Assembly: GCA_963837315.1 (NCBI GenBank)
Contig: CAWINE010000028.1
Coordinates: 470,462-534,461, forward strand
Length of the DNA: 64,000 nucleotides
Source: an uncultured Chloroflexia bacterium
GTDB taxonomy: Bacteria > Chloroflexota > Chloroflexia > QHBQ01 > JADMIH01
Direction: 5' to 3'
Below are positions 4,913-62,500 of this stretch, one piece after another. The notes below the pieces were generated by a model. That model was not told where the DNA came from, ran no database searches, and worked only from the letters and a program-made list of their open reading frames with translations. A program made the position numbers and the translations under genes. Numbering within the stretch: the stretch's first letter is position 1; each line of letters opens with the position of its first letter.

Positions 4913-6326
4913 AGTCGCTATAGTCGGGGCTGGGCCGGCAGGCTTATCCGCCGCCTATGCCGCTTCGCGGGCGGGCTGCAGAGTTACACTGGTGGATAGC
5001 TATGCGCGGGCGGGCGGGCAATACTACAAGCAGATGCCCGCTCAGTTTCGCGCCAAATCGCCCGGCTCGCTGCATCACGAGTTTGCCCGAGCGGAGAGGC
5101 TCTTCTCGGCTTTGCAGAGAGATAGCAACGTTACTACCCTCACAGGCACTACTGTCTGGTCGGCTCGGGCGTCCACCTCTGACGATGCTGTAACCCTTTA
5201 TCTGGATAGCGGTGATAAGAGCAGCGAACTGGCTGCGCGGAAGGTGGTGCTTGCGCCCGGTGCGTACGATCGCGCTCTGCCTTTCCCCGGCTGGGACCTG
5301 CCCGGCGTGATGACGGCGGGCGCGATGCAGACGCTGGTAAAGAGCCAGCGAGTGCTGCCGGGACGCCGGATCGTGCTGTCAGGGTCGGGTCCATTCCTGA
5401 TGCCGGTGGCTGCGGCGCTGGCCCAGGCGGGGGCCCAGGTGCTTGGCGTCTATGAGGCCACGCGCCCGCGCCAATGGGTGCGCCACGCCTTGCAAGCGTG
5501 GGGCCACTGGGACAAGCTGCGCGAGGCACAGGGCTATCTGGGCATTTTGAGGAAGCACCGGGTGCCAGTGGAGTTCGGGCGTGCCGTAATCCGTGCCGAA
5601 GGCGAAGGGCAGGTAAGGAGCGCGGTGGTAGCGCGTCTCAAAGCCGATTGGTCGCCTATCGCCGGGAGCGAGCAATTCATCGACGTGGACTCCGTGGGCG
5701 TCGGCTACGGCTTTGTTCCTTCGACCGAGCTGGCAAACCTGCTCGGTTGCGCCCACCAATATGACACGTTGCAGGCTGGCTTCTTCGTAAAGCACGATGA
5801 CGCCATGGAGAGCAGCCGCAAGGGCATCTTCGTGGCCGGCGAGATAACCGGTATCGGTGGATCGGCGGTAGCGCGCCTGCAGGGAGCAATCGCAGGCCTG
5901 GCAGCGGCTCACCGGCTAGGGCATTTGAGCGCCGAGCGAGCGCGAGCAGCTATAGCTCCGCGCCGGAAAGAGCTACAGCACCAGCAGTCGTTTGCCAGGC
6001 TGCTGCATCGACTGTACGCAGTGCAACCTGGTTGGAGGGAATGGCTGACGCCGGAAACCACCGTCTGCCGCTGTGAAGAAGTGATCTACGCCAAAGTGGA
6101 AGAAGCGATCAACCAATTCGGTGCAAGCGACGTCAAGACCGTGAAGAGTCTCACGCGCTGCGGTATGGGTCTCTGCCAGGGCCGCATCTGCGGCCCCAAC
6201 GTCGCCGCTATCACCACCGCTCTGAGTGGTCGACCTCCTGAAGAGGTTGGCACGCTCTCAACCCGTCCGATCGTCAAGCCCATAAGCCTCGCCGCCCTGG
6301 CGAGCACCAACCAACCTGATATGTAA
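4890..6326 (+). CDS. FAD/NAD(P)-binding oxidoreductase alpha subunit with BFD-like [2Fe-2S] domain (LhpE / opine oxidase A-like)
   Basis: ATG 4890 overlaps the upstream stop. It carries the Rossmann motif VAIVGAGPAGLSAAYAASRAG, a second nucleotide site VLSGSGPF, and a C-terminal CRCEEV...TRCGMGLCQGRIC motif. Confidence 0.8.
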   Translation: MRMAPETEVAIVGAGPAGLSAAYAASRAGCRVTLVDSYARAGGQYYKQMPAQFRAKSPGSLHHEFARAERLFSALQRDSNVTTLTGTTVWSARASTSDDAVTLYLDSGDKSSELAARKVVLAPGAYDRALPFPGWDLPGVMTAGAMQTLVKSQRVLPGRRIVLSGSGPFLMPVAAALAQAGAQVLGVYEATRPRQWVRHALQAWGHWDKLREAQGYLGILRKHRVPVEFGRAVIRAEGEGQVRSAVVARLKADWSPIAGSEQFIDVDSVGVGYGFVPSTELANLLGCAHQYDTLQAGFFVKHDDAMESSRKGIFVAGEITGIGGSAVARLQGAIAGLAAAHRLGHLSAERARAAIAPRRKELQHQQSFARLLHRLYAVQPGWREWLTPETTVCRCEEVIYAKVEEAINQFGASDVKTVKSLTRCGMGLCQGRICGPNVAAITTALSGRPPEEVGTLSTRPIVKPISLAALASTNQPDM

Positions 6327-6338
6327 TAAGAGTAATCT

Positions 6339-6530
6339 TTGGGGGACACCCCCAAACCCCCGGCAGGGGAGCGCCCCTGCACCCCCTCTTTATGGGGAGC
6401 GAGACTTATGCAGGACACCCCACCCCCGGCAGGGGCGCTCCCTTGCACCCCTTTTCCAACTTCGAGAATGGAGAGATTTTGGGGACACCCCAAACCCCCG
6501 GCAGGGGAGTACCCCTGCGCCTCCCTTTAC
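6339..6530. repeat. array of three ~45-bp GGGGACACCCC-AA-CCCCGG-CAGGGG-N4-CCCCTG-CACCCC elements (period ~70 bp)
   Basis: Copies lie at about 6341-6386, 6412-6452 and 6481-6527. Each holds two short hairpins (GGGG-ACA-CCCC and CAGGGG-AGCG-CCCCTG). The same family recurs four times at 48975-49255. Confidence 0.85.
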
Positions 6531-9084: not shown

Positions 9085-9089
9085 GGAGA

Positions 9090-9236
9090 CCAAGTTGTCA
9101 GTTGTCAGTTGTCAGTAGACGGACGACCGACAACCGACTAAGGCTGATAGCTGAACGCTACGGTCTACTGACAATAGTTCGCTTCGCTCATCAACTGACA
9201 ACTGACAACTGACAACTTGGTCACAAACTGACAACT
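9090..9236. repeat. nested heptamer-arm hairpins (GTTGTCA / TGACAAC runs) between mglB and mglA
   Basis: ccaagttgtcagttgtcagttgtcagtagac (9090-9120) pairs with gtctactgacaa (9163-9174) and with caactgacaactgacaactgacaacttgg (9192-9220). The element fills the mglB-mglA spacer. Confidence 0.85.
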
Positions 9237-16116: not shown

Positions 16117-17172
16117 TTAGCCACTGCATCTCAGCTTTGCCGACTTCCTCATGCTCGCAGGTGCCTTGCTGCTCGCCGCCGTATCAAATTTCAGGCAATT
16201 GATAATACTATTTTCAACAGTATCGCTCAGGGCGTGTTCTGTGTAATAGGCGGTGTGCGGAGTAATAAGCACATTCGGGTATTTTGCTAACTGCAACAAC
16301 GATTTGTTTTCAATGGGTTTGTTTCTGCAGTCCGCGTAGAATATTCCCTCCTCTCCTTCGAGGACATCCAACGCCGCGCCGCCTAGTTTGCCGCTTTCCA
16401 ACGCCAAAATAAGCGCCGCGGTATCAAGAAGTGAACCGCGTCCAGTATTGATAATAAACGCGCCGCGCTTCAGTTGCTCGATACGTTGACGATTTAAGAG
16501 ATGGTGTGTCTCCGCGTTAAGTGGTGTATGGAGCGTTACAATATCGCTCTGCTGTAACAATTCATCAAGAGGAACGTAATCGGAGTTCGCTTCGCTCATG
16601 GTTTTGGGACGATGGTCACAGGCTAATATACGGCAGCCAAAACCCCGCAGCCTGTCTATAACTGCTGCGCCAATGCGTCCTGTTCCAATTACCCCAATGG
16701 TCATATCGCGTAATTCTTTCCCGCGTACATCATTCAATCTGAAGTCATGCACATCTACACGGCTGATAATGGATTTTGCATTGCGCACCGCCATCAGCAT
16801 CAGCATTAGTGTGTAATCAGCCACGCTATCGGGTGAATATGCGATATTTTCAACGGAAATGCCAACGCTCTCTGCGTATTTCACATTGATATGGTTATAT
16901 CCAATGCTTCTTGTGGAGATATACATGACGCCGGCCTGGCTAAGGGCGAGAAGAATGCAATCTGTGACTTGAGTTTTATGACTGACGCTGATGCATCGAT
17001 TTCCAAATGCCAGTCCAATATTAGCTTCAGATACCGCTGCATCAGTGATAGTTGGCGTAACGCCAAAGCGAGGCGCCACCTCTCGGAACAGAACGGCCTC
17101 GTCCTGTCCGCATCCATAAATTGTAATTCCCATTTTGCGGGCCGCTGTTCGTGCTGGTTCGCTGTAGGTCAT
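16117..17172 (-). CDS. vanH: D-specific alpha-keto acid (pyruvate) reductase VanH; the likely true start is the internal ATG at 17133
   Basis: The product is collinear with VanH: GITIYGCGQDEA, YISTRSIGYNHI, AYSPDSVADYTLMLMLMAVRN, GVIGTGRIGAAVIDRLRGFGC, GKLGGAALDVLEGEE and ITPHTAYYTE. The first 13 codons are homologous to the non-coding leader of the ligase gene. The last ~14 codons are antisense to a vanS-like fragment. Confidence 0.9.
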   Translation of the reverse strand: MTYSEPARTAARKMGITIYGCGQDEAVLFREVAPRFGVTPTITDAAVSEANIGLAFGNRCISVSHKTQVTDCILLALSQAGVMYISTRSIGYNHINVKYAESVGISVENIAYSPDSVADYTLMLMLMAVRNAKSIISRVDVHDFRLNDVRGKELRDMTIGVIGTGRIGAAVIDRLRGFGCRILACDHRPKTMSEANSDYVPLDELLQQSDIVTLHTPLNAETHHLLNRQRIEQLKRGAFIINTGRGSLLDTAALILALESGKLGGAALDVLEGEEGIFYADCRNKPIENKSLLQLAKYPNVLITPHTAYYTEHALSDTVENSIINCLKFDTAASSKAPASMRKSAKLRCSG

Positions 17173-17255
17173 GCCTCCAGTCTAGGCAGCATGGTGTTGC
17201 CGGCACGTATGTGGTTTTCGATATCTTGACGATATGCGCCAGCTCGTATCATGTC
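17145..17255. promoter_or_regulatory. copy 1 of the duplicated bidirectional van control region (between vanH and murF)
   Basis: About 100 bp are near-identical to 20612-20715. The shared core is cctccagtct.gg..gc.tggtgttgccggcacgtatgtggttttcgatat...gacgatatgc. It includes CGATATCT / CGATATGC direct repeats 11 bp apart (17219-17237) and a TATCAT -10-like box. Confidence 0.7.
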
Positions 17256-17448
17256 GGTGGCAAGACCGGTACGACGCTCATCTCAATCCCAACCGGTTAT
17301 GCGCTCGACTCGACCATCGCCTCGCCCGGATCATAGTCGGGCTTTGCGCCGGTCGAGGATCCCGCCTTCATCATGCTGGTGAAAATCGGATCAGCCAATA
17401 GATGAGCGAAGCGAACTACTTCGCTCATCGACCCGCTGGGAGGACGAT

Positions 17449-18960
17449 GTGTTCACAATCGACGACGTACGCAATGCGCTGAGCGACTGCCTGAAAGGGG
17501 AGCGTCCCGGCGCCGCCGGCGAGTTCACCGGTGTAACCAACAACTCCCGCGTGGCGAAGCCGGGCGAACTCTTCGTCGCACTCACCACCCCAACCGGTTA
17601 TGCGCTCGAGGTGCGAGACGGCCACGACTTCATCAGCGATGCTGTGGCACACGGCGCGACGGGCGTCATCGTCCACAATGAGGAAGTCCTGCTGCCGGAC
17701 CACGTCTGGGCCTTCCTGGTTGACGATACGAAGCACGCCATCGGCGAGCTAGCCCGCGCCTGGCGATCGCGCTTCGACGTTCGTGCTATCGCCATCGCCG
17801 GCAACGTCGGCAAGACGACGACGAAGGATCTGACGGCGGCCGTGCTGCAGGGCTGCGGCCACACTGTGCTCAAGAGCCCCATGAACTTCAACGATGAGAT
17901 CGGTCTGGCCATGACCCTGCTCCAGTTGGACCCAACCTATGCGGGCGCAACTCTCTCGGAAGATCACAGCTCATTGAGCGGACGGCGAGCTCGCGGCCCA
18001 GAGCGCACCACCGCTCCGTCCTTCGTCCTCCGGCCAACCGGAAGATCACGAGCATATGACCGGGCCGTGGTGGAGGTCGGCATGTTCGAGCTAGGTGAAA
18101 TCCGCCGCCTCTGCCAAATTGCGCAGCCGCAGATCGGCGTCGTGCTCAACGTCGGCCCGACGCACCTCGAACGCCTCGGCAGCATGCAGGCGATCGCGGA
18201 GGCAAAGTCAGAGGCCGTGCAGGATCTCCCCGCCACGGGCTGCGCCATCCTCAACGCGGACGACCCCATGGTGGCAGCCATGTCGCCGAAGACGCGAGCG
18301 CGGGTGCTGACCTTCGGAGTCGGGACGCACTCGCAGGCGGACTTTCGCGCGTCCGAGATCCAGAGCCACGGTCTGGCCGGCGTGGAGTTCACGCTTGGCT
18401 GCCTCGACCGCAGCCTTCGGGTAAGGAGTCCGCTGCCCGGTGCCGACCTCGTGCCCAACGCGCTCGCCGCGCTCGCCGTCGCGGTGGCGGACGGCGCCAG
18501 CGTCGAGGAGGCGGCCCAAGCGCTGACCTGTGCTCAGGTTAAGCCTCGGCTCCAGGCGAAGATGGCAGCCGGCGGCGCCACGATCCTGGACGATTCCTAC
18601 AATGCCAACCCGGCCTCGATGATGGCGGCACTGGACGTGTTGCGCGAGATGACGGGCCACCGCTACGCCCTGCTCGGCGACATGCTGGAGCTGGGCTCGG
18701 CGGAGACGGACGGGCATCGCTCCGTCGGCGAGCACGCCGCCCGCATCGTCGATGCGCTGTTCACGGTCGGGCCGCGCGGCGTGCAGATCGCAGCGGCGGC
18801 CAGGGCGGCGGGCGCCCGCACCGTTTGCCACTTCGATACGAAGGAAGAGGCTGTCGAGGTACTACGCGCCAACCTGGGCCCAGGCGACGTGCTGCTGGTC
18901 AAGGCCTCGCACGGCCTGGCCCTCGGCACCATAGTGGCGGAGCTCACCAGTTATATGTGA
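17449..18960 (+). CDS. murF: UDP-N-acetylmuramoyl-tripeptide--D-alanyl-D-alanine (or D-Ala-D-Lac) ligase MurF
   Basis: 503 aa from a GTG start 4 nt after GGGAGGA. MurF motifs are present: NSRVAKPGELFVAL, DGHDFI, IAIAGNVGKTTTKD, VVEVGMFELGEI, NVGPTHLERLGS, ILDDSYNANPASM and LLVKASHG. It is GC3-rich, unlike the flanking vanH and vanX. It carries two apparent in-frame insertions. Confidence 0.9.
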   Translation: MFTIDDVRNALSDCLKGERPGAAGEFTGVTNNSRVAKPGELFVALTTPTGYALEVRDGHDFISDAVAHGATGVIVHNEEVLLPDHVWAFLVDDTKHAIGELARAWRSRFDVRAIAIAGNVGKTTTKDLTAAVLQGCGHTVLKSPMNFNDEIGLAMTLLQLDPTYAGATLSEDHSSLSGRRARGPERTTAPSFVLRPTGRSRAYDRAVVEVGMFELGEIRRLCQIAQPQIGVVLNVGPTHLERLGSMQAIAEAKSEAVQDLPATGCAILNADDPMVAAMSPKTRARVLTFGVGTHSQADFRASEIQSHGLAGVEFTLGCLDRSLRVRSPLPGADLVPNALAALAVAVADGASVEEAAQALTCAQVKPRLQAKMAAGGATILDDSYNANPASMMAALDVLREMTGHRYALLGDMLELGSAETDGHRSVGEHAARIVDALFTVGPRGVQIAAAARAAGARTVCHFDTKEEAVEVLRANLGPGDVLLVKASHGLALGTIVAELTSYM

Positions 18961-19561
18961 TGGGTAAGTCAAAATATGTGTCCGGATAAGGTTCGTGTTT
19001 CAGTGTGTAATGCCACCACTCGCAATCGTATGAATTAAAACCGCAGTCCTCCATGATAGAACAAAGGTATTGACGGTTTCTCGCTTCGACTTGCGTGATT
19101 CCTTTTGCTCCATGATGTGAGATTGGATCCATCAAATCAAAGTCACCGCCCATTGGAGCAAGTTCACCGGTAGCCAGATGATAAAGCGTCAAGTCAACTG
19201 TGCTGCCCCGACTGTGGCCCGACTTAGCGGCCACATATCCTTTTTCAAACATCTCGGATCTGTCAATATTCGGATAGTGTCTTAGTTTCGTCCGGCCATC
19301 CTCCGGCTGTTTTGACCAGCGCAGAAAGCAATCTACGGCGCGTTGAGGGCGATAACCATCCCAAAGAAGCAAGCCAAAGCCAAGGGATGCGGCCTTTTCT
19401 CGCGCTCTTTCCAGGGCTGCGCACAAAGCCCTCGTACCGACAATTCGATTTGCCACATATCCGTCCACCGGTTTGCCGGTAAAGTTATCCCATGTGGCGT
19501 ACTTAGCATCCCAACGTATTCCGGATACAAACTCGTCTACAAAGACAAAATCATCTTTCAT
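18944..19561 (-). CDS. vanX: D-Ala-D-Ala dipeptidase VanX
   Basis: 205 aa with IRWDAKYATWDNFTGKPVDGY, LLLWDGYRP, SGHSRGSTVDLTL and DCEWWHYTL (zinc ligands and catalytic residues of the VanX family). Its start overlaps the ligase stop (ATGA). Confidence 0.92.
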   Translation of the reverse strand: MKDDFVFVDEFVSGIRWDAKYATWDNFTGKPVDGYVANRIVGTRALCAALERAREKAASLGFGLLLWDGYRPQRAVDCFLRWSKQPEDGRTKLRHYPNIDRSEMFEKGYVAAKSGHSRGSTVDLTLYHLATGELAPMGGDFDLMDPISHHGAKGITQVEARNRQYLCSIMEDCGFNSYDCEWWHYTLKHEPYPDTYFDLPITYNW

Positions 19562-20598
19562 CGCCGGTTTCCTGTCAATGTCAACGACACAATCCGGTCG
19601 ATCACTTCGGCCAACGGCAACCCTGCGGCTGCCATCATTCTCGGATAACGGCTGTATGAGGTCATACCAGGCAAAGTATTAACCTCGTTAAGGATCACTT
19701 TTCCATCTTCCTTCAGGAACATATCAACCCGCGAAAGTCCCCTGCATCCCAGGGCGCGATATAGGGCCTTTGCTGTCTCCTGAACGAGCAAGCGCGCCTC
19801 TGCCGAAATGTCAGCGGGAACGATTGCTGTTGAGTTTTCGGAACCGCTTTCAGGCTCACTCTCCTGATGGATTCTGAAAAAACCATGAGATAGAGAGATT
19901 CGATCTACCTCGCCTGCAATCAAATCCCTATCGTTCCCCAATATCGCACACCCCACCTCGCTGCCGACGACAGCCTCTTCAATCAACACCTTCGAGTCAT
20001 ACTGTCTTGCGGTTTCCACCGCACTGAGCAATTCTTCTTTTCGAGATACTTTACTGACGCCGAAAGATGAACCCGAACGGGCCGGCTTCACAAAGACGGG
20101 ATAAGTAAGCCGGTCGGGATCAATATTCTCGTTCGCCGCGACAGTCCAGAAATTCGGCGTAGCAATTCCCGCGCTTCTAGCGACGATGTAAGCAAGGGAT
20201 TTGTCCATACACAGAGCAGAACTTTGGACATCGCAGCCCACATAGGGGATGCCGGAAAGCTCCAACAAACCTTGCATCGCGCCATCCTCGCCAAGTTTGC
20301 CATGCAGAACGGGAAACACCATATCCAAACGGATCGTTTCGTATTGTCCCTGCTCCAGAACAAGCAATCCGTGGACGCTTCTGTCCGGTGACAGCGCAGC
20401 CGGACGGCAACTGCCGTTTTCCCAATTTGCATCAGGGCCGTCACAAAGCTTCCAAGCGCCGCTCTTCGTAATCCCGATATAGAACGGTTCATACTTTTCG
20501 ATATCCAGGTTTTTTGCGACCTCTTGCGCAGATTTAACGGAGATGGGATGTTCTTCGGAACAGCCACCGAATATAATTCCGATCTTCAACCTATCCAT
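19558..20598 (-). CDS. vanA: D-alanine--(R)-lactate ligase, VanA/VanB type (allele not assignable by eye)
   Basis: 346 aa, near-collinear with VanA/VanB: IIFGGCSEEHPISVKSA, EKYEPFYIGITKSGAWKLC, FPVLHGKLGEDGAMQGLLELSGIPYVGCDVQSSALCMDKSLAY, YPVFVKPARSGSSFGV, GSENSTAIVPADIS and NEVNTLPGMTSYSRYPRMMAAAG. SD GGAAG lies upstream. Confidence 0.92.
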   Translation of the reverse strand: MDRLKIGIIFGGCSEEHPISVKSAQEVAKNLDIEKYEPFYIGITKSGAWKLCDGPDANWENGSCRPAALSPDRSVHGLLVLEQGQYETIRLDMVFPVLHGKLGEDGAMQGLLELSGIPYVGCDVQSSALCMDKSLAYIVARSAGIATPNFWTVAANENIDPDRLTYPVFVKPARSGSSFGVSKVSRKEELLSAVETARQYDSKVLIEEAVVGSEVGCAILGNDRDLIAGEVDRISLSHGFFRIHQESEPESGSENSTAIVPADISAEARLLVQETAKALYRALGCRGLSRVDMFLKEDGKVILNEVNTLPGMTSYSRYPRMMAAAGLPLAEVIDRIVSLTLTGNRR

Positions 20599-20611: not shown

Positions 20612-20724
20612 TTTCAAACTGGTTCGCTCATGTCCTGCCTCCAGTCTGGGCCGCGTGGTGTTGCCGGCACGTATGTGGTTTTCGATATGCCGACGATATG
20701 CTACCCGCTGGTATAATCGAGAGT
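20612..20724. promoter_or_regulatory. copy 2 of the van control region: divergent ligase/vanR promoters with a candidate response-regulator site
   Basis: CGATATGC direct repeats at 20683-20690 and 20694-20701 are spaced 11 bp and overlap the -35 position. TATAAT lies at 20712-20717, 7 nt before the vanR ATG (leaderless geometry). The palindrome TGCCGGCA lies at 20661-20668. Confidence 0.6.
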
Positions 20725-21420
20725 ATGCGTGTGTTGATCGTCGAGGACGAACCCTATATGGCAGAAGCCATCCGCGATGGCCTACGCCTGGCAGCGATCG
20801 CCGCCGACATCGCCGGTGACGGCGACACCGCTCTGGAGCTGCTGAGCATCAACGCCTACGACATCGCCGTCCTCGACCGCGATATCCCCGGCCCCTCCGG
20901 CGACGAGATCGCCAAACGCATCGTCGCCTCCGGCAGCGGCATGCCTATCCTCATGCTCACCGCTGCCAACCGGCTCGATGACAAGGCCACCGGGTTCGAG
21001 CTCGGCGCCGACGACTACCTCACGAAGCCGTTCGCACTCCAGGAACTCGTGCTCCGTCTCAGAGCACTCGACCGCAGGCGGGCCCACAACAGGCCGCCCG
21101 TGCGAGAGATCGCAGGCCTGCGTCTGGATCCGTTCCGCCGCGAGGTCTACCGCGACGGCCGCTACGTCGCGCTCACCCGGAAGCAGTTCGCAGTGCTCGA
21201 AGTCCTCGGCGCTGCCGAAGGCGGAGTCGTCAGCGCCGAGGAGCTACTGGAACGGGCATGGGATGAGAACGCAGACCCGTTCACCAACGCCGTGCGCATC
21301 ACGGTCTCGGGACTGCGCAAACGGCTCGGCGAACCCTGGATCATCGCCACCGTGGCCGGCGTCGGGTACCGCATCGACACTCAACCAGACACCGGGCGTG
21401 AGGAAGGAGACCGTGGATAG
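20725..21420 (+). CDS. vanR: OmpR-family response regulator VanR
   Basis: 231 aa with a receiver domain (MRVLIVEDEP...VLDRDIPGPSGDEI...ILMLTA) and a winged-helix domain (LTRKQFAVLEVL...VRITVSGLRKRLG...GVGYRI). It lies divergent from the ligase and is followed by a sensor kinase. Confidence 0.85.
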   Translation: MRVLIVEDEPYMAEAIRDGLRLAAIAADIAGDGDTALELLSINAYDIAVLDRDIPGPSGDEIAKRIVASGSGMPILMLTAANRLDDKATGFELGADDYLTKPFALQELVLRLRALDRRRAHNRPPVREIAGLRLDPFRREVYRDGRYVALTRKQFAVLEVLGAAEGGVVSAEELLERAWDENADPFTNAVRITVSGLRKRLGEPWIIATVAGVGYRIDTQPDTGREEGDRG

Positions 21421-22516
21421 AGCCCCTGGTTTGAGTGTTCGCCTCAAACTCACCCTCAGCTACGCCGGCTTCCTCATGCTCGCAGGTGCCTTGCTACTCG
21501 CCGTCGTGTGGGTGTTCCTGCTGCGTTACGTACCCGACCGTCCGATCATCGCACTCGGGTTCGTTCCCAACCGTTCCGACCTCCTGGACGCTTTCGCTCC
21601 GAGGGCAGCCGCAATGGTGGCGTTCTTGCTGGTGTTCGGTCTCCTGGGAGGGTGGCTTCTCGCCGGCCGCATGCTCGCCCCCTGACTCGCATCACAGACG
21701 CCACACGCATGGCCGCGAACGGATCGCTTTCCCACCGGATCGAGTTGGAAGGCCGTCAGGACGAGTTCCGCGAACTCGCCGACAGCTTTGATGCCATGCT
21801 CGCACGGCTCGAAGCCCATGTCGCCGAACAGCAGAGATTCGCAGCCAACGCCTCCCACGAGCTGCGCACCCCGCTGGCGATCACGCAGACACTTCTTGAC
21901 GTGGCCCGCAACGATCCGAACCGTGACACCGGCGAACTCGTCGAGCGCCTCCACGCCGTCAACACCCGAGCGATCGACCTCACTGAAGCATTGCTCCTGC
22001 TCAGCCGCGCCGACCAACGGTCCTTCACCCGAGAACACGTCGACCTGTCCCTCATAGCGGAAGAAGCCACTGAAACGCTCCTCCCTCTCGCAGAAAAACG
22101 CGGCCTCACCATCGAGACCTCCGGCGACATAACCCCCACCATCGGCTCGCACGCGCTACTGCTGCAGATGACCACGAACCTCGTGCAGAACGCGATCGTC
22201 CACAATCTGCCTACATGGCACCGTGTGGGTCACGACCAGCATTCACCCCAAGCGTGTGGTGCTCACTGTCGAGAACACCGGTGAGAAGCTCACCCCACAT
22301 TTAGTTTCCACGCTTGTCGAGCCGTTTCAACGCGGCACCAAGCGAATACGCACCACACCCGCAAGCGGGTACCCGGCAGGTGTCGGCCTCGGCCTGGCAA
22401 TCGTCAAAAGCATCACCCAGGCACACGACGGGACCCTCACTCTCACCCCACGGGCCGCTGGGGGGCTCCGCGTCACGGTGCAGCTACCCGCAGCGCCACC
22501 GCACGCTGGCAGATGA
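21413..22516 (+). pseudogene. vanS: sensor histidine kinase VanS-type, two frameshifts
   Basis: A GTG start overlaps the vanR stop. The TM1-loop-TM2 region ends at a stop at 21685, in a C5 run. HAMP, the H-box (ANASHELRTPL) and the N-box (NLVQNAIVHN) continue in the frame of ORF 21508-22284. The G-boxes (VENTGEKL..GLGLAIVKSI) lie in the frame of ORF 22223-22516. Confidence 0.8.
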
Positions 22517-36254: not shown

Positions 36255-36520
36255 GTTTCTACTTCTTACTTCTTACTTCTTCAACGCCAAGACGCCAAGA
36301 CGCCAAGGTTTTTAACGGTTTGAACCACAAAGACACGAAGAGCACAAAGTTCACGAAGGGTATTATGGGTTTGAATTGCAGCGATCACGGAGTACTCAGA
36401 GATCACAGAGGATATTATGGTTCAACCCCCATAAATAATCTTGGCGAGCCTTGGCGTTCTTGGCGTCTTCGAAAAACCGTCGTCCGTCTACCGACAACTG
36501 ACAACTGACAACTGACAACT
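36255..36520. repeat. modular repeat array, reverse-complement homolog of 10060-10270, lying between the T-box terminator and the proS start
   Basis: On the minus strand it reads cagttgtcag x4, cgccaag units, ggttgaaccataata, CTCTGTGATCTCTGAG..., caattcaaacccataatac, CTTCGTG/CTTTGTG units, ggttcaaaccgttaaaaac, CTTGGCGT x3, and agtaaga x3. Confidence 0.85.
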
Positions 36521-36522
36521 GG

Positions 36523-36795
36523 CACAAAAAACGCCCCCGCCCCGGTCAAGGGACGAGAGCATGAATCACTCCCGCGGTACCACCCTGATTGTCACATTTG
36601 TGGCCTGTGACCGCTCCTGGTTATTGCTTGCGTGGGAACCGCCCACTCCATCCTACTTGCTCGACCTTGAGCTTTCTTCGGCGGACCGCTCGGTGGCGGG
36701 TTCGTCGCGGCAGGTGTTGCCGGGCTTGCACTCTCTCCGGTTCGCTGTAACCCTTGCTGCGCTTACTATTCCACTTCAACGCGGGCATATTCGAT
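36523..36795 (-). promoter_or_regulatory. T-box leader (tRNA-sensing riboswitch) with a CCC (Pro) specifier, upstream of proS
   Basis: Minus-strand elements, given in plus-strand coordinates:
- GTTGAAG..AATAGTA (stem I base)
- AGAGAG bulge (36731-36736)
- specifier GAA-CCC-G (codon at 36698-36700)
- AAGTAGG, and the T-box sequence AATCAGGGTGGTACCGCGGG (36571-36590)
- terminator CTCTCGTCCC-TTGACC-GGGGCGGGGG followed by CGTTTTTTGT (36525-36560). Confidence 0.8.
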
Positions 36796-44265: not shown

Positions 44266-45525
44266 ATGCCGGAAACAATCGTCAAGCCTAATCCCTATCA
44301 CGTCGCGGTCGAGCAGTTTATGATCGCCGCCGACAAGCTGAACCTCGATGAGGGGATGAAGCAAATATTATCCAAGCCCAAGCGCGAGCTGACCGTGAAC
44401 TTCCCCGTCCGCATGGACGACGGTAGCTACAGGGTCTTCACGGGCTATCGCGTGCAGCACTCGCTCACCCGCGGCCCTGCAAAGGGCGGCATCCGCTATC
44501 ATCAGGACGTTTCTCTGGACGAAGTGCGCGCCCTCGCCATGTGGATGACATGGAAGTGCGCTACAGTGGGCATCCCCTATGGCGGAGCCAAGGGCGGCAT
44601 TATCGTTGACCCCAAGAAGCTCAGCCTCGCGGAGACCGAGCGGATGACCCGCCGCTTCGCCGCCGAAATCGCCCCGATCATCGGCCCCGAGGTCGACATC
44701 CCCGCTCCCGACGTGAACACCAACTCTCAGACGATGGCCTGGATCATGGACACTATCTCCATGATGCGCGGCTACCCGATCCCCGGCCTTATCACCGGCA
44801 AGCCAATCGCCCTCGAAGGCTCGCTCGGACGCAACGAAGCGACCGCACGCGGCCTCCAGTACGTTGTGCGCGAAGCCGCCAAGACCAAGAATATGAGCCT
44901 CCAGGGCGCTCGCGTGGTCGTGCAGGGTTATGGCAACGCAGGCGCGATCGCGGCCCGCCTCCTCGCAGAGGATGGCGCCATCATCATCGCGGTGTCTGAT
45001 AGCCGCGGCGGTATCTACAACTCCAAGGGCATTGATCCCAACGGCGCGCTCCGCTACAAGCAAGAGCACGGCACCCTCTCCGGTTTCGCCGGCTCGGACG
45101 ACATCAGCAACGAAGCCATCCTTGAGGTCGAGTGCGACATTCTTGTGCCCGCCGCCCTCGAAAGCGTTATCACAGGCCGCAACGCCGACCGTATCAAGAC
45201 CAAGATGATCGCTGAGGCCGCCAACGGCCCCACAGGCCCCGAAGCCGACCGCATCCTGCACGATAAGGGCATCATGGTCCTCCCCGACATCCTGGCCAAC
45301 GCCGGTGGTGTTACCGTCTCCTACTTCGAGTGGGCGCAGAACATCCAGGGCTATTACTGGGCCGAGGATGAGGTCAATGTGAAGCTTGAGCGCGTAATGA
45401 AGCGCTCCTTCCAGGACGTTTACGAGACGGCAACCAATAGCTCGGTCGACATGCGCACCGGTGCTTATATGCTGGCAATCTCCCGCGTCGCGGAAGTCAC
45501 CCGCTTGCGCGGCATCTTCCCGTAG
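44266..45525 (+). CDS. gdhA: Glu/Leu/Phe/Val dehydrogenase family, glutamate dehydrogenase
   Basis: 419 aa with GPAKGGIRYH, the catalytic Lys region IPYGGAKGGI, and the NAD(P) site VVQGYGNAGA. SD GAGGAG lies upstream. Confidence 0.88.
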   Translation: MPETIVKPNPYHVAVEQFMIAADKLNLDEGMKQILSKPKRELTVNFPVRMDDGSYRVFTGYRVQHSLTRGPAKGGIRYHQDVSLDEVRALAMWMTWKCATVGIPYGGAKGGIIVDPKKLSLAETERMTRRFAAEIAPIIGPEVDIPAPDVNTNSQTMAWIMDTISMMRGYPIPGLITGKPIALEGSLGRNEATARGLQYVVREAAKTKNMSLQGARVVVQGYGNAGAIAARLLAEDGAIIIAVSDSRGGIYNSKGIDPNGALRYKQEHGTLSGFAGSDDISNEAILEVECDILVPAALESVITGRNADRIKTKMIAEAANGPTGPEADRILHDKGIMVLPDILANAGGVTVSYFEWAQNIQGYYWAEDEVNVKLERVMKRSFQDVYETATNSSVDMRTGAYMLAISRVAEVTRLRGIFP

Positions 45526-47232: not shown

Positions 47233-48496
47233 GTGGCAGCAGAGCAGGCAGAGAAACCTAATCCTTATCAGGTCGCGGTCGAGCAGTTTATGATCGCCGC
47301 CGACAAGCTCCACCTCGATGAGGGGATGAAGCAGATATTGTCAAAGCCCAAGCGCGAGCTGACCGTGAACTTCCCCGTCCGCATGGACGACGGAAGCTAT
47401 AAGGTCTACACAGGCTATCGCGTGCAGCACTCGCTCACCCGCGGCCCCGCAAAGGGCGGCATCCGCTATCATCAGGACGTTTCTCTGGACGAGGTGCGCG
47501 CCCTCGCCATGTGGATGACATGGAAGTGCGCCACGGTTGGTATTCCCTATGGCGGGGGCAAAGGCGGCGTCATCGTAGACCCGCGTCAGCTAAGCCAGAA
47601 CGAGCTGGAGCGCCTCACCCGCCGCTTTGCCACCGAAATCTCTCCTATCATCGGCCCTGAGATAGACATCCCGGCTCCCGACGTGAACACCAATGCCCAG
47701 ACGATGGCCTGGATCATGGACACTATCTCCATGATCCGCGGCTACCCGATCCCCGGCCTCATCACCGGCAAGCCCATCCCGATCAAAGGCTCTCTTGGCC
47801 GTACCGAGGCCACCGCTCGCGGTCTGCAATATGTCGTGCGCGAGGCAGTCAAGGCGAAAGGCATGAGCCTGCAAGGCGCTCGCGTGGTCGTGCAGGGCTT
47901 CGGCAACGTCGGCGGCAACTCGGCCCGCCTCCTCGCTGAAGACGGAGCTGTCATCATCGGCGTCTCCGATGTATACGGTGCTCTCTACTCTTCCAAAGGC
48001 ATCGACCCTGACGCCGCCACCGACTACGCCCTCAAGAACGGTCGCCTGACCGATTTCCCGGGCACCGAGCCTATCACCAACGCCGAGCTACTCGAGCTTG
48101 AATGCGATATCCTTGTGCCCGCCGCGCTGGAAAGCCAGATTACCGGCCAGAACGCAGGCCGTATCAAGGCCAAAATGATAGCCGAAGGCGCGAACGGCCC
48201 CACAACGCCCGAAGCCGACCTTGTGCTTTACGACAAAGGCGATCATGGTCGTCCCCGACATCCTCGCCAACGCAGGCGGTGTTACCGTCTCCTACTTCGA
48301 GTGGGCGCAGAACATCCAGGGCTATTACTGGGCTGAGGATGAGGTCAACGACAAGCTGGAGCGCGTAATGAAGCAGTCCTTCAACGACGTTTACGACATA
48401 GCCACCAGCCGCAAGGTGGACATGCGCATAGGCGCTTACATGCTTGCGATCTCCCGCGTCGCCGAGGTCACGCGGTTGCGCGGCATTTTCCCGTAA
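47233..48496 (+). pseudogene. glutamate dehydrogenase paralog, one frameshift
   Basis: GTG 47233 lies 6 nt after GAGGAGG. The product is about 90% identical by eye to 44266-45525 in the first ~300 nt. The body is ORF 47218-48336. The C-terminus ([23 protein letters not shown]...RLRGIFP) is in ORF 48221-48496. The junction is at about 48240. Confidence 0.8.
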
Positions 48497-48902: not shown

Positions 48903-48974
48903 ATCGTGCCTCCTGATCTAGTGATTTACCTTCCAGGTCGCTGTGCAACTTCTACTAACCAATTAAAGATTGGA

Positions 48975-49255
48975 TGGTTTTGGGGACACCCCAAGCCCCG
49001 GCAGGGAGATCCCTGCACCCCCTTTTGTCGCCAACTTGTTAGTAATGGAGGTATTTTGGGGACACCCCAAGCCCCGGCAGGGAGCCCCTGCACCCCCTCT
49101 CCACGATAGCCTGTTAGAGAATAGAGGGAGTATTGGGGACACCCCAAGCCCCGGCAGGGGAGCGCCCCTGCACTGCTTCTTCACCATGGCCTGTTAGAGA
49201 ACAAGAGATACTGGGGACGCCCAAGCCCTGGCAGGGACCTCCAGGCACCCCTTCC
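48975..49255. repeat. array of four GGGGACACCCC...CAGGG-N-CCCTG...CACCCC elements (period ~75-78 bp)
   Basis: Copies lie at about 48982-49022, 49056-49096, 49134-49177 and 49213-49250 (the last degenerate). The family and orientation match 6339-6530. Confidence 0.85.
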
Positions 49256-52506: not shown

Positions 52507-53985
52507 CTAGCGCCTGCGTGTCGCGGCGCGGCGCAGGGTGAGGCCGGCGAAGACGAGAACCACAGACAATAGCATTGCTAAGGATGCTACAAGCCACATG
52601 GTCGTGTCGGCTGCGCCTGTCGTGGGCATACCAGGCACAGGGTTACCGGCAGCACAGGGTTAGTAGTGCCTGGCGTGCTGGAGCCAGGTGCGCTTGGGCT
52701 GGTGGAGCTGACATCCTTTATCGTGAAGCGGGCGACGGGGCCTGTCCATTTGAAGTCGGGAGTAACGTCAGCTTTGCCGGTGATGCCGGGGTGCAAGCTG
52801 ATCGGCTGCGGGGGAGTGGTGTTCGGTCCATGGAACTTGCCCCCGAATGGCGGTCCAGGCACGTCGACGGCCAGCTCGGTGTTGTCTTCGGCACCCGCAT
52901 CATAGGCCACAGTCTCTGTGGTGCCGTCCGTAAGTGGCACGCTATCGAGGCCCGTGAAACCGTCGTTGGTCTCGATCAGCATGGTGGCTGCCGAGAGTGT
53001 ATCGCCGTCTTTAGCGGTTATTCTGACCGTGATGCCATCCCCCGGCAAAAGGTGTGCGCCTGTGGTCATAACGGCAGTAGCCTGGCTTTGCAGCTCAGCG
53101 GCAAGCATGTCAGGCATCCCTTCTCTGGCCAGCAGTGCCGTGCCGGGTGAGGCCACCTGGCCAAGCTGCCAGGCGTGAGCCGATGCGGGGTGAGTGGCTA
53201 TCACAAGCGGAGACAACCCTTGCTTCCCCGAGTTGATGTTCATGACGGTCACATCGTACGTCTTCACGCCCGCCGGCGCGGGGATACTATTGCCAGGGCT
53301 AACCGAGCCCGGCGCGGCAGGAGCTGGATGCGTCCACTGCCTTGATGGTGAAGCGGGCGACGGGGCCTGTCCACTTGAAGTCGGGAGTAACGTCAGCTTT
53401 GCCGGTGATGCCGGGGTGCAAGCTGATCGGCTGCGGGGGAGTGGTGTTCGGTCCATGGAACTTGCCCCCGAATGGCGGTCCAGGAACGTCGACGGCCAGC
53501 TCGGTGTTATCTTCGGCACCCGCATCGTAGGCCACAGTCTCTGTAGTGCCGTCCGCAAGGGGTACACTGTCGAGGCCCGTGAAGCCGTCGTTGGTCTCGA
53601 TCAGCATGGTGGCTGCCGAGAGTGTATCACCGTCTTTGGCCGTTATTCTGACCGTGATACTGTCGCCGGGTAGAAGGTGTGCGCCTGTGGTCATAACGGC
53701 AGTTGCATTGCTTTGCAGCTCAGCGGCAAGCATGTCAGGCATCCCTTCTCTGGCCAGCAGTGCCGTGCCGGGTGAAGCAAGTTGGCCAAGCTGCCAGGCA
53801 TGCACCGAAGCGGGATGAGTGGCTATCACAAGCGGGGAGAGGCCTTGCTTGCCCGAGTTGATGTTCATCACAGTTACATCATACATCTTCATACCCGCCT
53901 GGGCGGCAGCGCGATAAGGGGCCACCAGCAGTGCCAGTAGAGTGAGGGCCAGTAATCCGGTAAGCAGACGTTTCTGATTCGACAT
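52507..53985 (-). pseudogene. secreted protein with two tandem spondin_N-like domains and a C-terminal PTTG-TM-RRR sorting-type anchor; at least two frameshifts
   Basis: ATG 53985 (MSNQKRLLTGLLALTLLALLV) follows AGGAGG. Two ~200-aa units (YDVTVMNINSGKQGLSPLVIATHP...MLIETNDGFTGLD...PDFKWTGPVARFTIK) are encoded by a ~626-bp tandem duplication. The inter-unit junction (about 53330) and the C-terminal segment GMPTTGAADTTMWLVASLAMLLSVVLVFAGLTLRRAATRRR (about 52620 to 52507) are out of frame. Confidence 0.7.
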
Positions 53986-58011: not shown

Positions 58012-58095
58012 AAGTTGTCAGTTGTCAGTAGACGCTTATGCTCGGTCGTCGGTCGTCCTTCGTCTACTGACAACTGACAACTGACAACTGACAAC
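58012..58095. repeat. heptamer-arm hairpin (GTTGTCA / TGACAAC units)
   Basis: agttgtcagttgtcagtagacg ... cgtctactgacaactgacaactgacaactgacaact. The heptamer is the same as at 9090-9236 and 36491-36520. Confidence 0.85.
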
Positions 58096-58100
58096 TCCGT

Positions 58101-58589
58101 CTAACACGTCTCCGGCATTGGAGCGCGGCAGATATAGACGCGGCAGGCGGCGTGCTTCATGACGTATGGTATCGTGCGGCCCAGGTCAAGCTCACCGAGC
58201 TTCTTCTGGTAGTCGGTTGCCATCACTATGAGCTCGGTGCCGCTTTCCCGCGCCATGTCCACAATAGCAGCGCCCGCGCTGCGGGCCTGCAAAATGGAAG
58301 CGTCAACGTCAAGCCCCATGTCTCGGGCCACCGCTTCGGCGTGGTCGAGGGCCTTTTCACCCTTCTCTACCTGCTCGGTAAGCTCGGCATCCAGGGGCAG
58401 GGCGTGCGGCACCTGTACCACATAAACCACGTCTATCGTGACAATGCGCCCCTTGTGCTTCTTGGCAGCTGCGTAAGTATATGCGAGACGAATCGCTTCA
58501 TCGTCAATTTCCGCGCCTTTCACTGCTACCAGGATCTTCTTTGCTTTGTTTTCATCTCCGTTTGCACGGTTGAATATGTTGTTAGCCAA
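58101..58589 (-). CDS. universal stress protein (UspA family)
   Basis: 162 aa with KILVAVKGAEIDDEAIRLA and a C-terminal ATP-binding-type GTELIVMAT...GRTIPYVMKHAACRVYI. Confidence 0.8.
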   Translation of the reverse strand: MANNIFNRANGDENKAKKILVAVKGAEIDDEAIRLAYTYAAAKKHKGRIVTIDVVYVVQVPHALPLDAELTEQVEKGEKALDHAEAVARDMGLDVDASILQARSAGAAIVDMARESGTELIVMATDYQKKLGELDLGRTIPYVMKHAACRVYICRAPMPETC

Positions 58590-59551: not shown

Positions 59552-62500
59552 CTACCGCCCGGCATTATCCTTGGCTGCAGGAATAGCGCAGTCAGGGAAG
59601 AAGGTATTGCCTTCTATCTTCGAAGTCTGCCCCCTTGTGGCGTTGTTATTGGGCCTGAAGTACGGCAGATTGGCCGGAGGTATGCATGGCTCACCCGGTT
59701 CACCGCATCGGTAGCCTGCCATGATAGAGCGGGTGACCAGTCTATACGTGTACGTGTAGTAGGTGCTGCCTATGGGCACATCCTGGAATTGTCGCCCGGT
59801 GGGCGCATCGCCGAACTCGGCTGCGTTAGCGTCTATCTTGGTGATCTGCCCCCTTGTGGCGTTGTTGTTGGGTCTGAAGTATGGCAGATTACGGGGCTGC
59901 ACGCATGGCTCGTTAGGTCCGCCGCATGCATAGCCGCTGATATATCCCCTCGACGCAAGTCTACCAATGTATAGCTGGAAGGTAGAGCCTACAGGTACAT
60001 CCTGGAACATCTGGGCGGGCTGTGGGTCAGAGAAGCCGGCGGCGTTAGTCACTATCTTGGAAAGCTGCCCCCTGGTCACATTGTTATTAGGCTTGAAGGT
60101 ACCGTCAGAGTAACCGTTGATAATGCCCAGGCAAGCCAGGCAGTGGATGTAGGGATAGAATGTGCTGCCCACAGGCACATCTATGAAGGTGAGCGTGCAG
60201 GCTCGGGGCTGGCCAAAAATGAGCTTAACGCCATCTTCTATGATCCAGCCGTCAGGACGGGCCAGCTTGGACTGCTCGGGCGAGCCTGCGAGCACGCACA
60301 GCACATTGGTGAACAGGCCATTTGCGCCCTGCTGCACGCCTACGGTCTCGCTCGACTCAGGGTCGATCTGGCCGTAGATGAGGTCGAATTGGTCACTTCC
60401 CTCGTACAACCTTATCTCGAAATTCACCCCTGAACCCATGAGTCGCGCGGCTCGCCATTCGATATTGAATATACGATTAGGAGTAGTGCCGCTCACAGAG
60501 GTGAAGATGCCGCAGCCTGTGCAATCGGTTACAAGGTCGTCCCAGTAACCGAAGATAGCGAAGTCGGCGGCACCGGTCGGCAGGCAGGTGTTGGCAGAGG
60601 GATTCGAGTTCGAGATGAAGCCGAGGGTGCCGTTGGAGCCGAGCGTGGCCGACGAGAATTGCTGCCCGTAAAGGGTGGCCGGGAAGGGCAGCACTATAGT
60701 GTTCTCACAATTGTCACAGTGGTTACCTGTGTCGGTTGTGCCGGGCACAATAGTACCGGTTGCCGCTACGAATACGTAATCGGTGGCCGCCGGCCCGGGA
60801 GTGCTTGTCGCCGTGGCGGTGAAATTGGGGTCTGGAGTGTATGTGGCGGTGGCGGTTGCCGAGGGTGGAGGGCAGATGGTGCTGTAGTGCTCGATAAGTG
60901 TGCCGTCGAAACTCCCTCCGGCGTCGGTATGTGCCTTTCCCACTGCCCACACGTCGGTGGCGGATACCTTGCCCAGGCCCTGCAGGAAATACTTGGTGGA
61001 AGGCGGCTCGCCGGCCCCGCTGACTAAGGTCCAGGTCGTGCCATCCCAGTGCACAAAGGCGTTCTCACTGACCGCCCATACGTTGTTGGACGATATCGCC
61101 GCTACGTCGGTCAGCTCGCGATTGCAGCATGGCAGAGGCATAGTCACCACCGACCATGACGTGCCGTTATAATGCATGGCCAGGGGCAACCCGCTCCCAT
61201 CGGTCGTATAGCCCACCGCCCAGATGTCGGTGGCCGATACCGCTGCTACCCTGTACAGCACGCCTGATACCGCAGCCGGATTGTTAAACCGGGTCCAGGA
61301 GGTGCCGTTCCAGTGCATGAAGAGTGGCCTGTTGGCGTCTACCTCTCCTACCGCCCAGATATCGTTTGCGGACACAGCCGCCAGACCCTGCAGGCTATCC
61401 CGGTTTGGTAGGATAGGCATTGCAACTTGCGCCCATACCGAGCCATTCCAATGCAGTGCGAGCGCCTGTGTTCCTGCGCCTTGTACGTAGCTTCCAACAA
61501 CCCATACGTTGCTTGATGACACCATGCGTACGTCCCGAATGCCTCCCACGGGAACGGTGATAGCAGGGGAAGCCGCCAGGCTCCAAGTGCTGCCGTCCCA
61601 ATGTTCGAGGAGTGGCTGGTGACCTGTCGCGGTCGGTGAGTCGTAATCGCCCACCGCCCACGCATCGCCCGGTAAGGCCGCAACACCACCCATAGAAACG
61701 TTGTTGGCCGGTGGGCTTGACAGGATGCTCCACTTGGCGCCATCCCAGTGCTCCATAAGGGCAACGGCTGTGGGATTGGGTGATGTGTAATCGGCGCTTG
61801 TGCCCACCGCCCACACGTCGTTTGCCGCTGCGGCTGCCACGTCAACAAGAGCGTTACCGTTCATGCCGCTTGGATTAGGGCTATCCACCGAATTCCAGGC
61901 AACACTGCAGGTAGGTATAGGTGTAGCTGTGGCAACAGGAGCCGATCCGTCAATCGAGGAGACGAAAGCTTCGACGCCGCCGCTGGAACTCGGCTGGTAC
62001 GGGCTTTGGATTGGGAAATCGGTCGAGAGAGTGCTTCCCGTTACGTAAGACTTATTCGCGCCGTCGGTGGCTCCGCCAATGCCCACATCGTTCGCAGTCC
62101 CCCCCAGGAAGGTGGAAAAGACCAGGTTGTTGCCGGCAGCACCCAGAATGAGGGCGAACGCATCACCGCCGCCCTGGTAGGTCTGTAGCGAATTCATCTG
62201 CGGGAAGGTGCTTGAGCTCGTGCTGCCGACGACGTGCGCTCTGCCGGTGTTGTCTACAGATATATCGGCTCCTTCGCCTGCTCCCCCGGCACCAAAGCAT
62301 GTAGAGTAAATCAGACCATTGCCTGCGGCGTTGAACTTGGTGACGAATGGGCCGGCCACGCAGCTTTGATATGGGTTCAGGGTTGGAAAGTCGGTGGAGT
62401 TGGTCTGGCCGGTCACATAAGCGCTGCCGCTGGCATCAATATCAATGTCGCGCCCATAGTCGCAACAGCCACTGCCACCCAGGTAGGTAGAATAGATGAG

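Follow-up and report, generated by a model that had tools for sequence, protein, structure and literature searches.

Two copies of a candidate VanR-dependent two-way promoter cassette in a van gene cluster of an uncultured Chloroflexia bacterium

We analysed a 64,000-nt stretch of DNA from an uncultured Chloroflexia bacterium (GenBank assembly GCA_963837315.1, contig CAWINE010000028.1, positions 470,462 to 534,461 of the forward strand; below, the window), which contains a cluster of van genes. An element of about 100 bp occurs twice in this cluster. Copy 1 lies between vanH, transcribed leftward, and murF, transcribed rightward; then follow vanX and a D-Ala-D-Lac ligase gene, both transcribed leftward, copy 2, and the rightward genes vanR and vanS. 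Each copy is likely a VanR-dependent promoter cassette operating in both directions, of the actinobacterial type known from Streptomyces coelicolor. Comparison with related loci supports the view that this conserved multi-copy two-way cassette belongs to the ordinary design of van clusters in soil bacteria and is not specific to the window. Gene identities in the window are matches to NCBIfam models (Table 1). The VanR protein is approximately 90% identical to that of S. coelicolor (PDB 7LZ9/7LZA) over the full length, the DNA-binding domain included.

A repeat search of the window identified a 70-nt ungapped direct repeat, 17168-17237 versus 20632-20701, with 90% identity. This pair is designated D1. 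The van region contains no other of its kind; in the entire window, ten families of long repeats were found, D1 among them. A gapped alignment made with MAFFT carries the similarity leftward to CTGGTTCGCT (17155-17164 and 20620-20629), with a small indel inside this extension: relative to copy 1, copy 2 lacks 6 nt and has 5 nt of its own. At the right edge only the -10 box is common to the copies, with a 1-nt offset. Thus the near base-for-base alignment of 17145-17255 with 20612-20715, proposed in the initial annotation, holds for the 70-nt repeat and its gapped left extension, whereas the outermost 10 nt or so do not align. The -10-like boxes it described were recovered (TATCAT in copy 1 and TATAAT, 20712-20717, in copy 2), as were two direct repeats spaced by 11 bp in each copy (CGATAT starting at 17219 and 17230, and at 20683 and 20694). 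A profile of 79 foreign vanR upstream regions, applied with nhmmer, matches both copies and has no third match anywhere in the window. The pattern TTCGATATNNNGACGATATGC occurs there exactly twice, versus 0.02 occurrences expected by chance.

The element family was collected using VanR as the query against one genome per species. This yielded 80 loci with VanR identity of 85-96%, from Streptomyces, Nocardia, Amycolatopsis, Thermoleophilia, Acidimicrobiia, Chloroflexota, Limnocylindria and Dormibacterota metagenome-assembled genomes (MAGs). In about 78 of them, DNA-level conservation covers approximately 105 nt in front of vanR (consensus CTGGTTCGCTGTAGGTCATGCCTCCAGTCAAGGCAGCGTGGTGTTGCCAGCACGTATGTGGTTTTCGATATGCCGACGATATGCGCCGGCTCGTAGCATCGGAGCATG). 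With the nhmmer profile, 114 copies were identified across 84 loci and the window, with up to four in one locus; most van clusters have more than one. In every locus with vanHAX in range, one of the copies extends over the vanH start. Most often the left-side gene encodes a VanY-type carboxypeptidase, which beside vanRS forms the known vanY-vanRS triad (PMC8698665); other left-side genes encode an S11-like carboxypeptidase, a VanJ-like protein, VanK/FemAB, VanH, ligase, actinobacterial MurF, or an ABC ATPase. The copies always stand at gene starts and keep a fixed spacing to an ATG. Some are located on mobilizable megaplasmids of Streptomyces and Embleya.

The layout of the window, with both the vanH-murF and the ligase-vanR pair, recurs in locus L081, and the vanH-murF arrangement recurs also in L082, L085 and L091. 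The cassette signatures of the window are shared with Chloroflexia MAGs. The leftward hexamer variant CAGACT/TAGACT is found in Chloroflexota-type copies of L038 and L081-L083 as well, and the AT-rich -10 variant of copy 2 in other Chloroflexota-type loci. An unusual variant, ATATCCTGACGATAGGC, occupies the positions between the repeats and after them in all three copies of L081 (6617-6708, 7787-7884, 12615-12717). It suggests within-locus homogenisation by gene conversion or recent copying in that lineage. Such a shared variant is not seen in the two copies of the window.

The window copies are 90.8% identical to each other over a 65-nt core, and each is 89-92% identical to the copy from an Actinomycetes MAG (L001). 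They are therefore no more alike than copies from different phyla, which indicates purifying selection on the element family; a recent duplication was rejected on this ground. The initial annotation had vanH and murF each acquiring a copy of one bidirectional VanR-type promoter: the twofold presence of such a promoter is borne out, and a local or recent acquisition is not. The same identities bear on the possibility that the second copy is a scar of local duplication or rearrangement, with only the vanR-side promoter functional and the vanH/murF copy, or at least its murF side, idle. Indeed, scars are numerous here: a relic of the vanS 5' end, a 13-nt remnant of a vanH start, a 21-nt murF duplicate within the murF leader, and a 39-aa insert in MurF. 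However, ten related loci, two of which lack the rest of the cassette, have retained both the repeats and the murF-side -10 box, and vanH has no other upstream region for expression. We consider an idle scar quite improbable. At the murF-side -10 position, L081-L083, L085-L088, L091 and L093 have TATCAT, TACCAT, TATCCT, TATCGT or TATGAT, and L089 has TACCGT; this survey covers the loci where the cassette and the murF 5' flank were read, L084 being a short contig that duplicates L083.

The rightward side of the cassette contains the candidate VanR operator. In the family consensus the CGATAT repeats occupy positions -40 to -35 and -29 to -24, and the -10 box positions -12 to -7, counted from the A of the vanR ATG; in copy 2 the repeats are 2 nt further out. 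A direct repeat with an 11-bp period centred near -32 is the standard arrangement for activators of the OmpR/PhoB family. The window copies conform to it, as had been noticed initially: the repeats cover the region from about -42 to -24 of the plus-strand promoter, and a sigma-70 scan found neither a consensus promoter nor a consensus -35 hexamer at either copy, which points to dependence on an activator. The extended -10 box of copy 2 ends 7 nt before the vanR ATG, and thus a leaderless vanR mRNA is predicted. The spacing of hexamer, 6-7 nt and ATG is that of S. coelicolor vanR, CGACTCGTAATCTCGACACCATG.

The maxima of conservation over 110 aligned copies are GTGTTGCC, CGTAT, TTTTCGATA and CGACGATAT, and the CGATAT repeats are among the most conserved columns. 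Promoters of vanR only (L051, L052, L061), and of murF only, with no divergent vanH (L086, L093), have kept just TTTCGATAT-N5-CGATAT and the -10 box. Since this is the sole upstream part surviving in the stripped promoters, CGATAT-N5-CGATAT is the best operator candidate, and a deletion series provided by nature across roughly 120 copies of the cassette likely narrows the VanR site to it. A weight matrix derived from 220 CGATAT 11-mers detected no further half-sites in the cassette on either strand.

The leftward side has -10-like hexamers TAGACT in copy 1 and CAGACT in copy 2. The former has its counterparts in TTGACT/TTGAAT-N6-ATG at vanK and vanH of S. coelicolor and in the family-consensus block AGTCAAGG. 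Upstream of the hexamer lies a second conserved block, GTGTTGCC-N4-CGTATG, which has the highest information content in the 110-copy alignment and is missing from rightward-only promoters. In leftward-only copies, everything from the ATG through the proximal CGATAT is kept, followed by divergence. Thus the leftward promoter appears to need both the repeats, which are inverted relative to it and lie at -47 to -63, and GTGTTGCC...CGTATG at -22 to -39. The possibility that GTGTTGCC and CGTATG are degenerate copies of the CGATAT half-site was dropped: the weight matrix has no match in this block, which is therefore a distinct element. A reading of GCAAC as a site of an extracytoplasmic function (ECF) sigma factor was rejected by eye, as GCAAC is at -28 to -24 and not at -35.

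Could the cassette be a genuine promoter module in which VanR binds GTGTTGCC...CGTATG, or in which some other factor binds the CGATAT repeats? Rightward-only promoters of vanR and of van-linked murF lack GTGTTGCC and CGTATG and retain the repeats, whose position is the one usual for the OmpR/PhoB family, and both variants are thus unlikely. In their favour, the conservation of GTGTTGCC and CGTAT equals or exceeds that of the repeats, and the operator of the VanR family has not been defined by experiment (PMC5036315, PMC8329863).

The cassette extends into the first codons of the leftward gene. The sequence ATGACCTACAGCGAACCAGCACGAAC, encoding MTYSEPART, heads this gene (vanY, vanH, vanK and others) in 67 of the 114 copies, whatever the protein. 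In the window it forms the start of vanH, where, according to the NCBIfam VanH models, homology to VanH proper sets in at about residue 10-16; there is another ATG at 17133. Mismatches in ATGACCTACAGCGAACCAGCACGAAC are spread evenly over the three codon positions (roughly 10-11 each, among copies selected by similarity to the reference), and the A-ending codons GAA, CCA, GCA and CGA are retained even in high-GC hosts. This suggests, rather than proves, that the first 26 transcribed bases are constrained at the nucleotide level. The homology of the minus-strand leaders claimed earlier has to be re-read in this light. The segment ATGAGCGAACCAG upstream of the ligase gene (minus strand, 20619-20631) does match ATGACCTACAGCGAACCAG at the vanH start (minus strand, 17154-17172), but neither is part of a leader: the ATG that they share serves the cassette as a leaderless start codon, and about nine codons travel with the promoter.

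The arrangement typical of leaderless genes is seen at vanR (TATAAT, 7 nt, ATG) and at vanH (TAGACT, 6 nt, ATG), whose start has kept the full leaderless-type form. It is absent at murF, with its leader of about 190 nt, and at the ligase gene, with a leader of about 38 nt that carries a vestigial open reading frame (ORF); both are derived states shared with relatives. The ends of the cassette align with mapped promoters: GCCTAGACTGGAGGCATG on the left and CTGGTATAATCGAGAGTATG on the right can be matched with S. coelicolor vanK CCTTGACTGGGGGCATG, vanH CCTTGAATAGAGGCATG and vanR CTCGTAATCTCGACACCATG as given in Table 1 of PMC3160421, the link running through the family consensus of 110 copies. 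That table, citing Hong et al. 2004, documents the three genes as leaderless, with experimentally determined start sites. An inserted vanH start led by a Shine-Dalgarno (SD) box (GGAGGA, 4-5 nt, new ATG) was observed in close Chloroflexota-type relatives, namely L081 (7787-7884), L082 (7744-7841), L083 (14746-14850), L085 (approximately 1215-1260) and L091; in L085 and L091 it arose via tandem duplication of the first 19 nt. The change looks as if an actinobacterial leaderless promoter had been adapted to a new host.

From these comparisons we infer that VanR of this organism binds the repeats, that transcription starts at the predicted sites, and that the promoters are inducible. Phosphorylated VanR would form a head-to-tail dimer on CGATAT-N5-CGATAT. 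Its site would overlap the rightward -35 region in the pho-box manner and stand in for the missing -35 hexamer. Rightward transcription from copy 2 would then yield a leaderless vanR(-vanS) mRNA, that is, autoregulation, and from copy 1 a murF mRNA with the long leader. The leftward promoters would be driven by the same site, at about -47 to -63, together with GTGTTGCC...CGTATG, producing a leaderless vanH mRNA from copy 1 and a short-leadered ligase-vanX mRNA with a vestigial 5-codon ORF from copy 2. With both copies bidirectional and VanR-dependent, four transcription units would be placed under one regulator. Homology and comparative evidence thus support the single regulon of four units that was envisaged at the outset.

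Several observations weigh against this scheme. At the leftward promoters the repeats are upstream and inverted, which is unusual for activation of the PhoB type. The block GTGTTGCC...CGTATG is as conserved as the repeats and yet unexplained, and it seems to serve the leftward promoter only. The spacer between the repeats of copy 1 creates TTGACG, 15 nt upstream of the -10 box, which could add VanR-independent activity. Signal control may have been lost, as vanS has two frameshifts, although these may be assembly errors. In S. coelicolor, loss of vanS leads to constitutive expression. Finally, attempts at electrophoretic mobility shift assays (EMSA) with an Amycolatopsis VanR homologue failed (PMC5036315), and a structure paper of 2021 states that the sequences recognised by S. 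coelicolor VanR are not yet known (PMC8329863).

One vanS frameshift is near 21680, in a run of five C, and the other near 22213, where there is no homopolymer. The gene is either a pseudogene or affected by assembly errors; the other van genes are all intact. A relic of the vanS 5' end, covering the first transmembrane segment, adjoins the 3' end of vanH, and the last 20 or so vanH codons run through it on the opposite strand. L085 (63-260) also has this relic, and in front of it stands a third cassette copy that has lost its vanR. Thus an older vanRS unit has been destroyed at the 3' end of vanH.

A non-coding stretch of about 100 nt that occurs in multiple copies, is conserved across phyla and is present on mobilizable Streptomyces and Embleya megaplasmids might also be a structured RNA (a leader, a riboswitch or a small RNA) or a mobile-element terminus. 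This is very doubtful. There is no Rfam match by gathering score or at E<=1, and the folding z-scores are only -1.0 to -2.4 for both strands of both copies. The element has no terminal inverted repeats, and its invariable position at gene starts, at a fixed distance from an ATG, does not fit a mobile-element end. Moreover, most of it lies upstream of both the mapped or predicted start sites and hence is mostly not transcribed. A structured RNA was therefore rejected.

The murF leader was considered separately. It aligns with that of eight related loci (L081-L083, L085-L087, L091, L093), and by inspection the same leader is present in L088 and L084. Large indels occur in it, and L089 has lost most of it. 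RNAalifold applied to 9 sequences found no covariation (covariation term +2.37, only 1 compensatory pair), and the leader has no Rfam match. A riboswitch-like leader was rejected in view of the lack of covariation, the large indels and the deletion in L089. At 17288-17308, the leader repeats 21 nt from within murF (17589-17609, encoding PTGYAL) without mismatch. A window-specific insertion at 17400-17430 forms a hairpin, GATGAGCGAAG...CTTCGCTCATC, and a 17-mer of this hairpin recurs within vanH (16584-16600) and at 9176-9192, beside a heptamer array.

On the ligase side of copy 2, the start of the cassette survives as ATGAGCGAACCAGTTTGA. It is followed by purine-rich AAGGAAGAAAGCAGC and the ligase ATG. 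The same junction exists in L082, where the mini-ORF reads MTY-stop, and in L081, where it is an in-frame fusion giving a 360-aa ligase. As the junction is shared with L081 and L082, the loss of vanH before the ligase gene is ancestral to this clade. Accordingly, vanH did not gain a promoter copy, as had been suggested at first; it is the ligase gene that lost vanH. The history is better read as follows: vanH keeps the full cassette, murF was probably joined to its vanR-type side, and the ligase gene appears to have lost its vanH, with 13 nt left.

The MurF protein is of the Chloroflexota type. It is up to 85% identical to metagenomic relatives and 74% identical to a protein of a Thermomicrobiales MAG (names among the relatives are Thermomicrobiales and Dehalococcoidia), versus only about 35% to the actinobacterial van-linked MurF. 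These relatives and the cassette signatures shared with Chloroflexia MAGs both indicate that the host probably belongs to the Chloroflexota. The protein contains an in-frame insertion of 39 aa (117 nt, 17938-18054), missing in the closest relative, L085 (85% identity); a direct repeat, CGGAAGATCAC, lies close to each end of the insertion (17957 and 18039).

Taken jointly, these features may tentatively be read as a portable plug-in unit, consisting of the operator, two promoters and approximately the first nine codons of a leaderless gene. Its near-identical copies might serve as recombination substrates for the capture and shuffling of genes into the VanR regulon, the leftward promoter might rely on the second, non-CGATAT element GTGTTGCC-N4-CGTATG, and the 26 nt might be selected as nucleic acid (an initial transcribed sequence or a leaderless-translation signal) and not as a peptide. 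The host-type murF and the ligase gene with no vanH would then be examples of genes so captured or shuffled, as would vanY, vanK, carboxypeptidases and transporters elsewhere.

For the window, the analysis provides an annotation that explains a possible co-regulation even though vanH is split from the ligase gene and vanX and murF has been recruited. Beyond that, it offers a comparative candidate for the VanR operator and a second element that is unexplained. VanR and the cassette are about 90% conserved across phyla, and the cassette is found on mobilizable megaplasmids; thus the regulator and its promoters travel with the resistance genes. This is relevant to the question of how van clusters from the environment remain inducible once transferred.

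Table 1. Positions of the cassette features and van genes in the window
Feature	Position	Strand	Remarks
Cassette copy 1	17151-17252		vanH (leftward)/murF (rightward); nhmmer 92 bits, profile positions 2-103; holds one D1 member
Cassette copy 2	20621-20722		ligase/vanR; nhmmer 79 bits, profile positions 7-108; holds the second D1 member
Candidate VanR operator, copy 1	17219-17235	plus	CGATAT-CTTGA-CGATAT; exact pattern match; about -40 to -24 of the predicted murF-side start
Candidate VanR operator, copy 2	20683-20699	plus	CGATAT-GCCGA-CGATAT; exact pattern match; -42 to -26 of the vanR ATG (20725)
Rightward -10 box, copy 1 (candidate murF promoter)	17247-17252	plus	TATCAT; read from sequence
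Rightward extended -10 box, copy 2	20709-20717	plus	TGgTATAAT; read from sequence; ends 7 nt before the vanR ATG
Leftward -10-like hexamer, copy 1	17179-17184	minus	TAGACT; read from sequence; 6 nt before the vanH ATG (17172)
Leftward -10-like hexamer, copy 2 (candidate ligase-vanX operon promoter)	20643-20648	minus	CAGACT; read from sequence
Second conserved block, copy 1	17194-17211		GTGTTGCC-N4-CGTATG; about -22 to -39 of the leftward vanH start
Second conserved block, copy 2	20658-20675		GTGTTGCC-N4-CGTATG; same block
Conserved first 26 nt of the leftward ORF	17147-17172	minus	ATGACCTACAGCGAACCAGCACGAAC (MTYSEPART); here the vanH start
Vestige of the cassette start, copy 2	20614-20631	minus	ATGAGCGAACCAGTTTGA; 5-codon mini-ORF; read from sequence
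vanS 5'-end relic	16130-16182	plus	first transmembrane segment; 53 nt, 91% identical to 21455-21507
vanH	16117-17172	minus	NCBIfam
murF 5' leader	17253-17448	plus	about 190 nt; ends in SD box GGGAGGA (17438-17444), GTG start at 17449
murF	17449-18960	plus	NCBIfam
vanX	18944-19561	minus	NCBIfam
D-Ala-D-Lac ligase gene	19558-20598	minus	NCBIfam; best model VanI, 707.6 bits versus cut-off 700
vanR	20725-21420	plus	NCBIfam; best model VanR-O
vanS	21417-22516		3' of vanR; read in three frames

Repeats of other kinds were observed elsewhere in the window. Arrays of the heptamer CTGACAA and its complement are located at 9087-9217, 36464-36534 and 58040-58102, some of them forming inverted pairs tens of kb apart. 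The regions 6323-6518 and 48962-49171 each contain three tandem copies of a repeat of about 58 nt with the core GGGGACACCCCAAACCCCCGGCAGGGG and a spacing of 66-76 nt, reminiscent of REP-like intergenic repeats. Long direct repeats of 260-300 nt with 86-93% identity (44284-44583 and 47254-47553; 45265-45524 and 48236-48495; 52698-52997 and 53323-53622) suggest duplicated genes approximately 3 kb and 0.6 kb apart. An ORF of 1446 aa (59552-63892, minus strand) contains internal repeats of about 190 nt (families D6-D8).

The closest known counterpart is the van regulon of S. coelicolor, comprising the vanR-vanJ, vanKp and vanHp promoters (Hong et al. 2004, Hutchings et al. 2006). Homologous sequence is found at both ends of the cassette: on the left TTGACT/TTGAAT, 6 nt and ATG, and on the right TAATCT/TAGCAT, 6 nt and ATG. 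The systems share the leaderless geometry of hexamer, 6 nt and ATG, the presence of several promoter copies per cluster under one VanR, and the divergent arrangement on the vanR side. The divergent vanR-vanJ promoter of S. coelicolor is inducible by vancomycin (PMC6001138). In the window the copies likewise flank van genes (vanH, the ligase gene, vanR and van-linked murF), beside a cognate VanR of the same subfamily. Unlike in S. coelicolor, the vanR-type side of one copy precedes a Chloroflexota-type murF with a leader of about 190 nt, and the ligase gene is driven directly, with no vanH in front. The -10 variants differ as well, TATAAT/TATCAT and TAGACT/CAGACT in the window versus TAGCAT/TAATCT and TTGACT in S. 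coelicolor.

The vanI cluster of Desulfitobacterium hafniense (vanX-murF-vanK-vanW-vanI-vanR-vanS) also includes murF (PMC4229326). The promoters of this cluster were not analysed in that study. As in D. hafniense, the ligase gene of the window, which scores best with the VanI model, is not preceded by vanH. However, in the window vanH persists 3.4 kb away with its own cassette, and the gene order and orientations are different.

The logic is the same in enterococcal Tn1546, where VanR, a member of the OmpR/PhoB family, activates its own promoter and the resistance promoter after phosphorylation by VanS. The VanR proteins themselves are distant: S. coelicolor VanR is less than 20% identical to the enterococcal ones (PMC8329863), and window VanR scores only 94-112 bits with the enterococcal NCBIfam VanR models. 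The operators of the Tn1546 promoters PvanR and PvanH are unrelated to the cassette, these promoters are not copies of one cassette, and their genes are translated from SD boxes rather than as leaderless mRNAs.

Finally, the cassette shares features with two known types of sites. PhoB of E. coli binds the pho box, in which a pair of 11-bp direct repeats takes the place of the -35 hexamer; the -10 box follows about 10 bp downstream. At ompC-micF, one set of OmpR sites serves two divergent promoters. Unlike in both, the half-site of the cassette is CGATAT, and a second, unrelated conserved block appears to be needed on one side only.

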